DNA from: a virus
Strand: one strand, 5' to 3'
Virus genome (UHGV): UHGV-0140731
DNA length: 20,682 nucleotides
In this document: in pieces, positions 11,405-11,557 of the stretch
How the letters are laid out: each line of letters starts with the position of its first letter
Position numbering within the stretch: the stretch's first letter is position 1
The notes under the pieces: generated by a model
What the model saw: the letters and a program-made list of their open reading frames with translations, nothing else
Told to the model about the DNA's origin: nothing
Database searches by the model: none
Made by a program: the position numbers and the translations under genes

Positions 11405-11557
11405 TGATACCTCGTAGAATCTGGTGTGTTAACCGATTCTACGAGTTGTCATTTGTTACCGGTCAGTCTACACATTTCAGATGCTGCGTTAAAAAATTCA
11501 AGTACTTCAAGTAGCACATCGTCATCAACACCCAGCCCCAAGATACGGTGATAAAAT

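Follow-up and report, generated by a model that had tools for sequence, protein, structure and literature searches.

A predicted hairpin over the pmgC ribosome-binding site, built around the late promoter LPsit, may mask pmgC on read-through RNAs of P1-like plasmid prophages

What does a perfect inverted repeat do when it lies between a group of accessory cargo genes and an essential phage late operon? Such a repeat was found in UHGV virus genome UHGV-0140731, a stretch of 20,682 nucleotides (here called the window) that sequence comparison identifies as a P1-like plasmid prophage. Megablast alignment of positions 10800 to 12600 with 20 P1-group phages gave 96 to 99% identity, ending at ∼11457. 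The similarity to P1 and P7, which takes in tub and pmgC at 96 to 99%, stops 1 to 3 nt upstream of the −22 box of the P1 late promoter LPsit; the repeat thus sits at the boundary of the cargo island and the late operon, as originally predicted. The protein encoded by pmgC in the window is 97 to 99% identical to P1 PmgC and matched PHROG 1851 (“PmgC-like”; E value, 5e−102). The original prediction took pmgC for the first structural gene; it is the first gene of the LPsit late operon, but as a putative morphogenetic or tail-assembly gene it is not proven to encode a structural protein. By CRISPRi, pmgC through sit are essential in P1, and silencing of simA-C was without effect on P1 plating (PMC10695390), which is consistent with a promoter downstream of simC. 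The features of the locus, all on the minus strand, are listed below.

5864 to 9238, minus strand: sit, identified from the annotated P1 and P7 records
9320 to 10201, minus strand: pmgB, identified from the same records
10216 to 10827, minus strand: tub, identified from the same records
10838 to 11404, minus strand: pmgC (188 aa), heading the LPsit late operon (gene order, pmgC-tub-pmgB-sit and onward), from the P1 and P7 records
11405 to 11407, minus strand: UCA next to the AUG, pairing with UGA at 11449 to 11451 (in the −22 box) as an outer 3-bp helix in the minimum-energy structure
11410 to 11413, minus strand: pmgC Shine-Dalgarno GAGG, 5 nt upstream of the ATG (11404 to 11402), read from the sequence
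11411 to 11421, minus strand: hairpin 3′ arm GATTCTACGAG, which includes the GAG of the Shine-Dalgarno and covaries with the 5′ arm
11422 to 11434, minus strand: hairpin loop GGTTAACACACCA, holding the predicted LPsit start
11435 to 11445, minus strand: hairpin 5′ arm CTCGTAGAATC, present only on RNAs starting upstream of LPsit
11436 to 11441, minus strand: LPsit −10 hexamer TAGAAT, within the 5′ arm; annotated as minus_10_signal in P1 and P7 and identical in the window
11446 to 11454, minus strand: LPsit −22 box AAATGACAA (P1: AAATGACTA), from P1 and P7 annotation and alignment
11558 to 13635, minus strand: variable cargo island of three co-oriented ORFs (lengths, 325 aa, carrying an SH3 domain; 168 aa; and 172 aa, secreted)
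11560 to 11575, minus strand: weak hairpin resembling a terminator (6 bp, 3 GC; tail GAATTTTATC), located where the 325-aa ORF stops

Between the immI region and pmgC lies a slot that is a hot spot for cargo. It holds simABC in P1, upf50.0/50.5 in P7, and three unrelated ORFs in the window, and at least six different inserts adjoin the same promoter/hairpin module. A Pfam search with the cargo ORFs of the window returned only subthreshold matches. Past the cargo island, C4 RNA, icd, and ant lie on the opposite strand; Rfam matches to the c4-a1b1 target element and the C4 antisense RNA (13782 to 13834 and 13902 to 13987, both plus strand) confirm that the immI region lies beside the island. Many cargo variants encode a small secreted protein ending in ...DGCLK that is YfjT-like (PF27224) or belongs to phrog_3429 (ORFs upstream of the hairpin in the loci labeled L005, L011, L104, L105, L114, and L118); in the window, the corresponding gene (12522 to 13028, minus strand) is split from the hairpin by the extra 325-aa SH3-domain ORF (phrog_7086). 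The 172-aa cargo protein (13117 to 13635, minus strand) has a hydrophobic, signal-peptide-like N terminus and no similarity to P1 SimC; over its C-terminal 41 residues it shows 51% identity to Sit 921 to 957 (GMRxxxVQGTLEERARG; E value, 1e−7). As a secreted mimic of an injection/tape-measure segment encoded in the slot that in P1 holds the superimmunity (sim) genes, it might act in superinfection exclusion. Elsewhere in the window, a full-length match to the Rfam sok antitoxin RNA (17915 to 18085, plus strand; 116 bits; E value, 3.5e−26) indicates a hok/sok-type addiction module.

On the plus strand, ctcgtagaatc (11411 to 11421) and gattctacgag (11435 to 11445) are complementary at 11 of 11 positions with 13 nt between them (11422 to 11434), exactly the repeat originally described, and a repeat search lengthened it to 17 nt at 88% (11405 to 11421 and 11435 to 11451). 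The minus-strand order is AAATGACAA-CTCGTAGAATC-ggttaacacacca-GATTCTACGAG-G-TATCA-ATG. The original prediction also placed a GAGG 6 nt upstream of ATG 11404 and paired it on the minus-strand RNA; the motif is present at 11413 to 11410, with a spacer of 5 nt, and the fold confirmed the pairing, with the GAG inside the 3′ arm and the final G just outside it. RNA from 11385 to 11470 (minus strand) folded at −24.2 kcal/mol, compared with −11.0 ± 2.6 kcal/mol for 200 dinucleotide shuffles (z = −5.1; 0 of 200 as good), and the outer helix of the predicted fold extends to position −1. Perfect 11-bp inverted repeats with loops of 3 to 20 nt numbered two in the window against a mean of 0.14 over 300 shuffles, 10.7% of which held at least one; by itself, therefore, the repeat is only modestly unusual, which is suggestive but not decisive. 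It is the position of the hairpin and its conservation with compensatory changes that argue against chance. An Rfam search of 11300 to 11600 gave no match at an E value of ≤1. The other perfect 11-bp repeat of the window (16155 to 16180, plus strand; 4-nt loop), which extends to 14 nt at 93% (16152 to 16165 and 16170 to 16183), sits within ORF 15930 to 16730, taken as kilA from its position after ant.

The 5′ arm coincides with a promoter. In the P1 record AF234172, the “−22 region of LPsit” is annotated at 4647 to 4655 (locus L001), which corresponds to the −22 box of the window at an offset of +6799. The arm consists of CTCG-TAGAAT-C, that is, the promoter spacer, the −10 hexamer, and one further base, and the −22 box abuts it; the original prediction had missed this overlap. 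LPsit is annotated in GenBank as a late promoter dependent on Lpa (and host SspA). The 11 annotated P1 late promoters yielded the consensus aAC AAGTGACTT n4 TAnnAT, which P1 LPsit (AAATGACTA-ctcg-TAGAAT) fits, its box and −10 being identical to those of LP26. The window sequence AAATGACAA-ctcg-TAGAAT has the same layout: a 9-bp −22 box resembling AAGTNACTT, a 4-nt spacer, a −10 of the form TAnnnT, and no −35. Its −10 is identical to that of P1 LPsit, and its −22 box matches at 8 of 9 positions. The exception is position 8 (window 11447), which is A in AAATGACAA and T in all 11 P1 late promoters; since P1-type and JK004-type relatives often have A here, the variant is probably tolerated. Going by standard sigma-70 spacing, transcription should start at about 11430/11429, 6 to 7 nt past the −10 and within the loop. 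On a late RNA starting there, the 5′ arm would be missing and the pmgC Shine-Dalgarno accessible, and only RNAs started farther upstream would form the hairpin. The literature searched on LPsit, pmgC, and P1 transcriptomics, a search outside which key P1 papers lie, contained no description of the hairpin and no mapped LPsit start.

To quantify this contrast, the energy needed to open the pmgC initiation region was computed for three spans (−9 to +3, −15 to +6, and −20 to +13). Opening was predicted to cost 9.7 to 15.5 kcal/mol on RNAs starting at 11500 to 11560 and 4.3 to 8.2 kcal/mol on RNAs starting at 11427 to 11430, a difference between read-through and late RNA of 5 to 7.5 kcal/mol in the window and 10 to 12 kcal/mol in P1 itself. 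Weak pairing of the Shine-Dalgarno with a downstream CUCG was predicted on the late RNA (minimum free energy, −7.8 kcal/mol), so the contrast is quantitative rather than all or none. As a specificity control, the sequence upstream of the start site was shuffled 100 times for each of the 11 P1 late promoters. P1 LPsit gave a difference of 10.6 kcal/mol (z = 10), reached by 0 of 100 shuffles, and nine of the other ten promoters lay within shuffle noise, with LPdar borderline (z = 2.1). Since LPsit was the sole clear outlier, the complementarity is specific to this promoter and not a by-product of late-promoter composition. The idea that such a hairpin is a general property of P1 late promoters was accordingly dropped, 1 of the 11 being clear and 1 marginal. 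LPdar, upstream of lydA (P1 AF234172; L003 31183 to 31230), resembles a weaker version of the same design: CCTCCT directly after the −10 pairs with AGGAGG, the Shine-Dalgarno of lydA (a holin gene), and the predicted start falls inside the anti-Shine-Dalgarno arm (energy difference, 4.7 kcal/mol; equaled in 5 of 100 shuffles). At LPpac, CTTTCGT in the −22 box and spacer is complementary to ACGAAAG at the pacA Shine-Dalgarno, at a level not above the shuffle control.

Conservation was assessed in P1-type loci, 83 of them taken from genomes and viral contigs and ∼49 from metagenomes. All 22 arm positions were invariant. Four loop positions, the spacer between Shine-Dalgarno and ATG, −22 box position 8, and the whole upstream sequence varied; within the hairpin, the loop was the sole variable part. 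At least six unrelated upstream flanks begin 1 to 3 nt before ACAAATGAC in these loci. On this sequence evidence, both arms are under purifying selection. A recombination junction within the repeat was considered and discarded, as homology breaks upstream of the −22 box and not inside the repeat. Scans of genome, viral, and metagenome contigs found the element in only four lineages, the metagenomes adding none, and in all four the −10 is TAGAAT or TAAAAT.

The more diverged lineages changed both arms. The JK004 group (Cronobacter phage JK004 together with Salmonella, Klebsiella, and Enterobacter plasmids and contigs; PmgC, 73 to 77% identical) has the sequence A[ACT]ATGACAA-CTCG-TAAAAT-CGG-[CT]TGAAGAT-CCG-ATTTTACGAGG. 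Here TAGAAT/ATTCTA has become TAAAAT/ATTTTA, a change from G:C to A:U at the third −10 position, and the 8-nt loop is unrelated to the 13-nt P1-type loop. The helix is ∼20 to 24 bp with bulges, since ATGACAAC of the −22 box pairs with GTTGNCAT and covers the AUG (−22 to −29 kcal/mol). In the loci of this type (L005, L007, L104 to L107, L114, L118, and L119; ∼60 nt upstream of pmgC), the whole promoter, from ATGACAAC through the −10, mirrors the region from GAGG to AUG; in L119, the helix is perfect save for one bulge (−29.4 kcal/mol). L114 and L119 carry ATTTTGCGAG, which makes a U·G wobble. The Pantoea alvi-type loci L013 and L110 (PmgC, 68% identical) read TAGAAT...TTTCTGAGG; each arm has lost 2 nt, one pair is U·G, and the hairpin is weak (−12 kcal/mol in L013). 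L112, a sister of L013 (PmgC, 85% identical), reads TAAAAT...TTTTTGAGG and shows the G:C-to-A:U double change plus one mismatch; its hairpin is marginal at −7.8 kcal/mol. Judging from these sequences, the change at the third −10 position arose twice independently, in the JK004 group and in L112 relative to L013.

Because MAFFT misplaces the arms of L013 and L112, pairs in these loci were taken from each sequence's own fold, allowing for the 2-nt deletions per arm. In the covariation count, 95.6% of cells were paired, a level reached by 1 of 500 shuffles, and slid registers gave 27 to 44%. RNAalifold recovered the same helix independently, with a covariation term of ∼0. The covariation is real but thin: few lineages contribute, and a single base pair carries most of it. 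Read on the opposite strand or in DNA, the wobbles would become A·C mismatches, and the distance between the arms varies; both points favor sense-strand RNA over a protein-binding palindrome. An antisense promoter formed by the mirrored TAGAAT on the plus strand was rejected: the box upstream of it matches the −22 consensus at only 4 of 9 positions, and in L114 and L119 the mirrored hexamer is CAAAAT with the RNA pairing kept through G·U. An RNase III site requires a near-continuous helix of ∼20 bp or more. The window hairpin, with 11 bp and a 3-bp outer helix across a 3-by-3 internal loop, is shorter than this; in the JK004 group, with its longer helix, RNase III processing might occur.

Terminators upstream of the element differ among cargo variants, and in the window, the cargo island is the presumed source of read-through RNA. 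In cargo of the P7, YfjT, and JK004 types, there is no terminator and the upstream stop codon lies 8 to 30 nt from the −22 box; read-through into pmgC is plausible in the P7-type and YfjT-type variants. P1 has a good terminator-like hairpin after simC, and the window has the weak one at 11560 to 11575, which is a consensus match only, of a kind whose count was not above shuffle expectation; some variants may consequently have little read-through. The genes upstream in L013 and L112 belong to the late set themselves and end at a strong intrinsic terminator, which, with the weakness of the hairpin in these loci, counts against a gate on read-through. There, TAGAAT or TAAAAT is the sole −10-like hexamer between this terminator and pmgC, which implies that a promoter in the 5′ arm is required there.

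The wider family places the element in context. In D6-type relatives (L006, L008, and L014 to L021; PmgC, ∼45 to 60% identical), pmgC abuts bplB with neither promoter nor hairpin, so read-through translation of pmgC is not intrinsically harmful, which also counts against such a gate. The same arrangement suggests that the immI/repL block and cargo slot interrupt the late gene string in the P1 lineage, and that LPsit restarts there a string that is continuous elsewhere. In L116, L120, and L121, a terminator is present and the leader is a different one. Taken with the D6-type loci, these contexts indicate that the element goes with a break in the late gene string ahead of pmgC.

The reading we favor, and consider reasonably probable, is that the hairpin masks the pmgC ribosome-binding site on read-through RNAs only, with LPsit built into its 5′ half. 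What the analysis shows is the structure itself, the annotated promoter elements that it overlaps, arms that are conserved and covary, and a predicted gap in opening energy. A read-through RNA from the cargo would carry both arms; the 5′ arm (spacer and −10) would pair with the 3′ arm (leader and GAG), and the outer helix would join part of the −22 box to the bases before the AUG. Translation of pmgC from RNA masked in this way would be poor, and the untranslated operon RNA might then undergo Rho-dependent termination, by analogy with general Rho polarity. This would keep the essential tail operon off whenever expression is limited to the cargo, as, for example, in a lysogen. During late lytic growth, Lpa would activate LPsit, transcription would start ∼7 nt after TAGAAT, in the loop, and the resulting RNA, having no 5′ arm, would present an open ribosome-binding site and be exempt from the gate. 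We infer the start site, the read-through RNA, the translational block, and the Rho polarity from the features of the locus. On the best reading, then, the gate would depend on the point at which a transcript starts and would not be a constitutive block of pmgC. The original suggestion of a translational gate between two expression units thus fits the function best supported here, with the amendment that the gate would be selective for transcript start, the 5′ arm being the LPsit −10 region.

Four other explanations were each weighed below this reading. The hairpin could serve the cargo mRNA and not pmgC: once transcription has ended through Rho or by leaky termination, it would protect the 3′ end of the cargo transcript or act as a site of processing, its overlap with the promoter and Shine-Dalgarno being forced by the short intergenic space. 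Its stability, its place directly downstream of co-oriented cargo ORFs, often without a terminator, and its retention whatever the cargo speak for this; against it, the helix follows the initiation region precisely, reaching the AUG in the JK004 group, and a weak form persists in L013 and L112 although the upstream unit there is already closed by a strong intrinsic terminator. We regard it as unlikely as the main role, although a 3′-end role for cargo mRNA and a gate on pmgC are not mutually exclusive. Slightly less probable still is a fortuitous palindrome whose arms are constrained separately, the 5′ arm as promoter and the 3′ arm as ribosome-binding site. A perfect 11-bp repeat does arise somewhere in ∼11% of window shuffles, and the conservation comes mostly from very close relatives. 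However, the third −10 position and its partner in the leader have no known separate constraint and yet changed together twice, the loop varies among close relatives when the 22 arm positions never do, and the complementarity is specific to LPsit (z = 10).

The overlap of the repeat with the −10 and initially transcribed region of an activator-dependent promoter also raises the possibility that it acts in DNA, as a palindromic protein-binding site or a cruciform over −10/+20 that modulates LPsit firing. A dimeric site needs fixed spacing, but the arm spacing shifts from 13 to 8 nt between lineages; the U·G pairs in L114, L119, and L013 are mismatches in DNA and in the antisense strand; and nine of the other ten Lpa-dependent promoters have no such complementarity, with that at LPdar being weak. 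These observations make a DNA-level role improbable. The least probable alternative, and one for which we see little room, is the terminator or attenuator of the original prediction, ending cargo transcription ahead of the late operon. Its location between two expression units and the 5 G-C pairs in the 11-bp stem would suit such a role, but the sense strand continues GTATCAATGACACC after the 3′ arm, and a terminator is argued against by the lack of a U tract; moreover, the 13-nt loop is atypical, the terminator scan did not call the hairpin, and related lineages have a canonical terminator elsewhere, upstream of the element.

Masking of the pmgC ribosome-binding site according to transcript origin would have close counterparts in phage T4. 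At the T4 genes e, soc, 49, and I-TevI, the Shine-Dalgarno and/or AUG is paired within a hairpin on long transcripts from upstream, the late promoter lies in the DNA of the 5′ strand of the hairpin, and late transcripts, which are without that strand, are translated (PMC3014915, PMC2988022). The same arrangement has been proposed from sequence for I-TevII/III, segB, mobE, and related homing-endonuclease leaders (PMC3014915, PMC2988022). The P1-like locus resembles e, soc, 49, and I-TevI in having promoter elements, here the −10 and −22, in the 5′ strand and the Shine-Dalgarno in the 3′ strand, as judged from sequence and predicted fold: a predicted stem-loop covers the Shine-Dalgarno, the promoter −10 is inside the 5′ arm, and the pairing is kept among related phages. 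The arrangement being already known from T4, LPsit and pmgC would constitute a further example. Several differences are evident. The phage is temperate, and its promoter uses sigma-70 plus the activator Lpa (−22 box and −10) in place of the T4 gp55 late promoter TATAAATA; the transcription excluded is presumably lysogen or early expression of accessory cargo rather than T4 early and middle transcription; and the gated gene heads an essential multigene tail operon beside a cargo hot spot.

Work by Davis, Simons, and Kleckner in 1985 and by Schulz and Reznikoff in 1991 reportedly described “fold-back inhibition” of read-through transcripts in IS10 and IS50. In these systems, transcripts started outside the insertion sequence include a stretch from upstream of its own start site that pairs with the transposase ribosome-binding site, and the insertion sequence's own transcripts are without it, as would hold for LPsit. 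The difference is in what is protected: a transposase in an insertion sequence there and a phage late operon here. Relative to the other Lpa/SspA-dependent late promoters of P1 (LPs, LP26, LPdar, LPpac, and others), LPsit is conventional in its 9-bp −22 box, 4-nt spacer, and TAGAAT, with the layout of LP26; it differs in that its DNA alone is strongly complementary to the downstream initiation region, with LPdar weakly so.

A broader and more tentative proposal, which we consider possible but hold with less confidence than the gate itself, is that, in P1-like plasmid prophages, the LPsit promoter/hairpin cassette is a portable insulator that lets accessory genes land safely in the slot ahead of pmgC. 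The promoter in its entirety, from −22 box to −10, would have evolved as a mirror of the whole initiation region, from Shine-Dalgarno to AUG. Any cargo, with or without a terminator, could then be expressed in the lysogen without switching on the essential tail operon, and the Lpa-driven transcript would be exempt. If this is true, a single RNA helix ties promoter and ribosome-binding-site sequences together as they evolve, which would be an unusual constraint on a promoter. In practice, engineered P1 phagemids and cargo insertions upstream of pmgC should leave 11405 to 11454 intact. P1 is a paradigm phage, and the plasmid-prophage family to which it belongs is widespread and carries accessory genes, among them resistance genes. 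A gate governed by transcript origin would explain how an essential late tail operon can lie directly downstream of lysogen-expressed genes, often without a terminator, and would carry the T4 principle, in which an inhibitory hairpin contains a late promoter, over to a temperate phage whose late promoters are of an unrelated type that depends on an activator.
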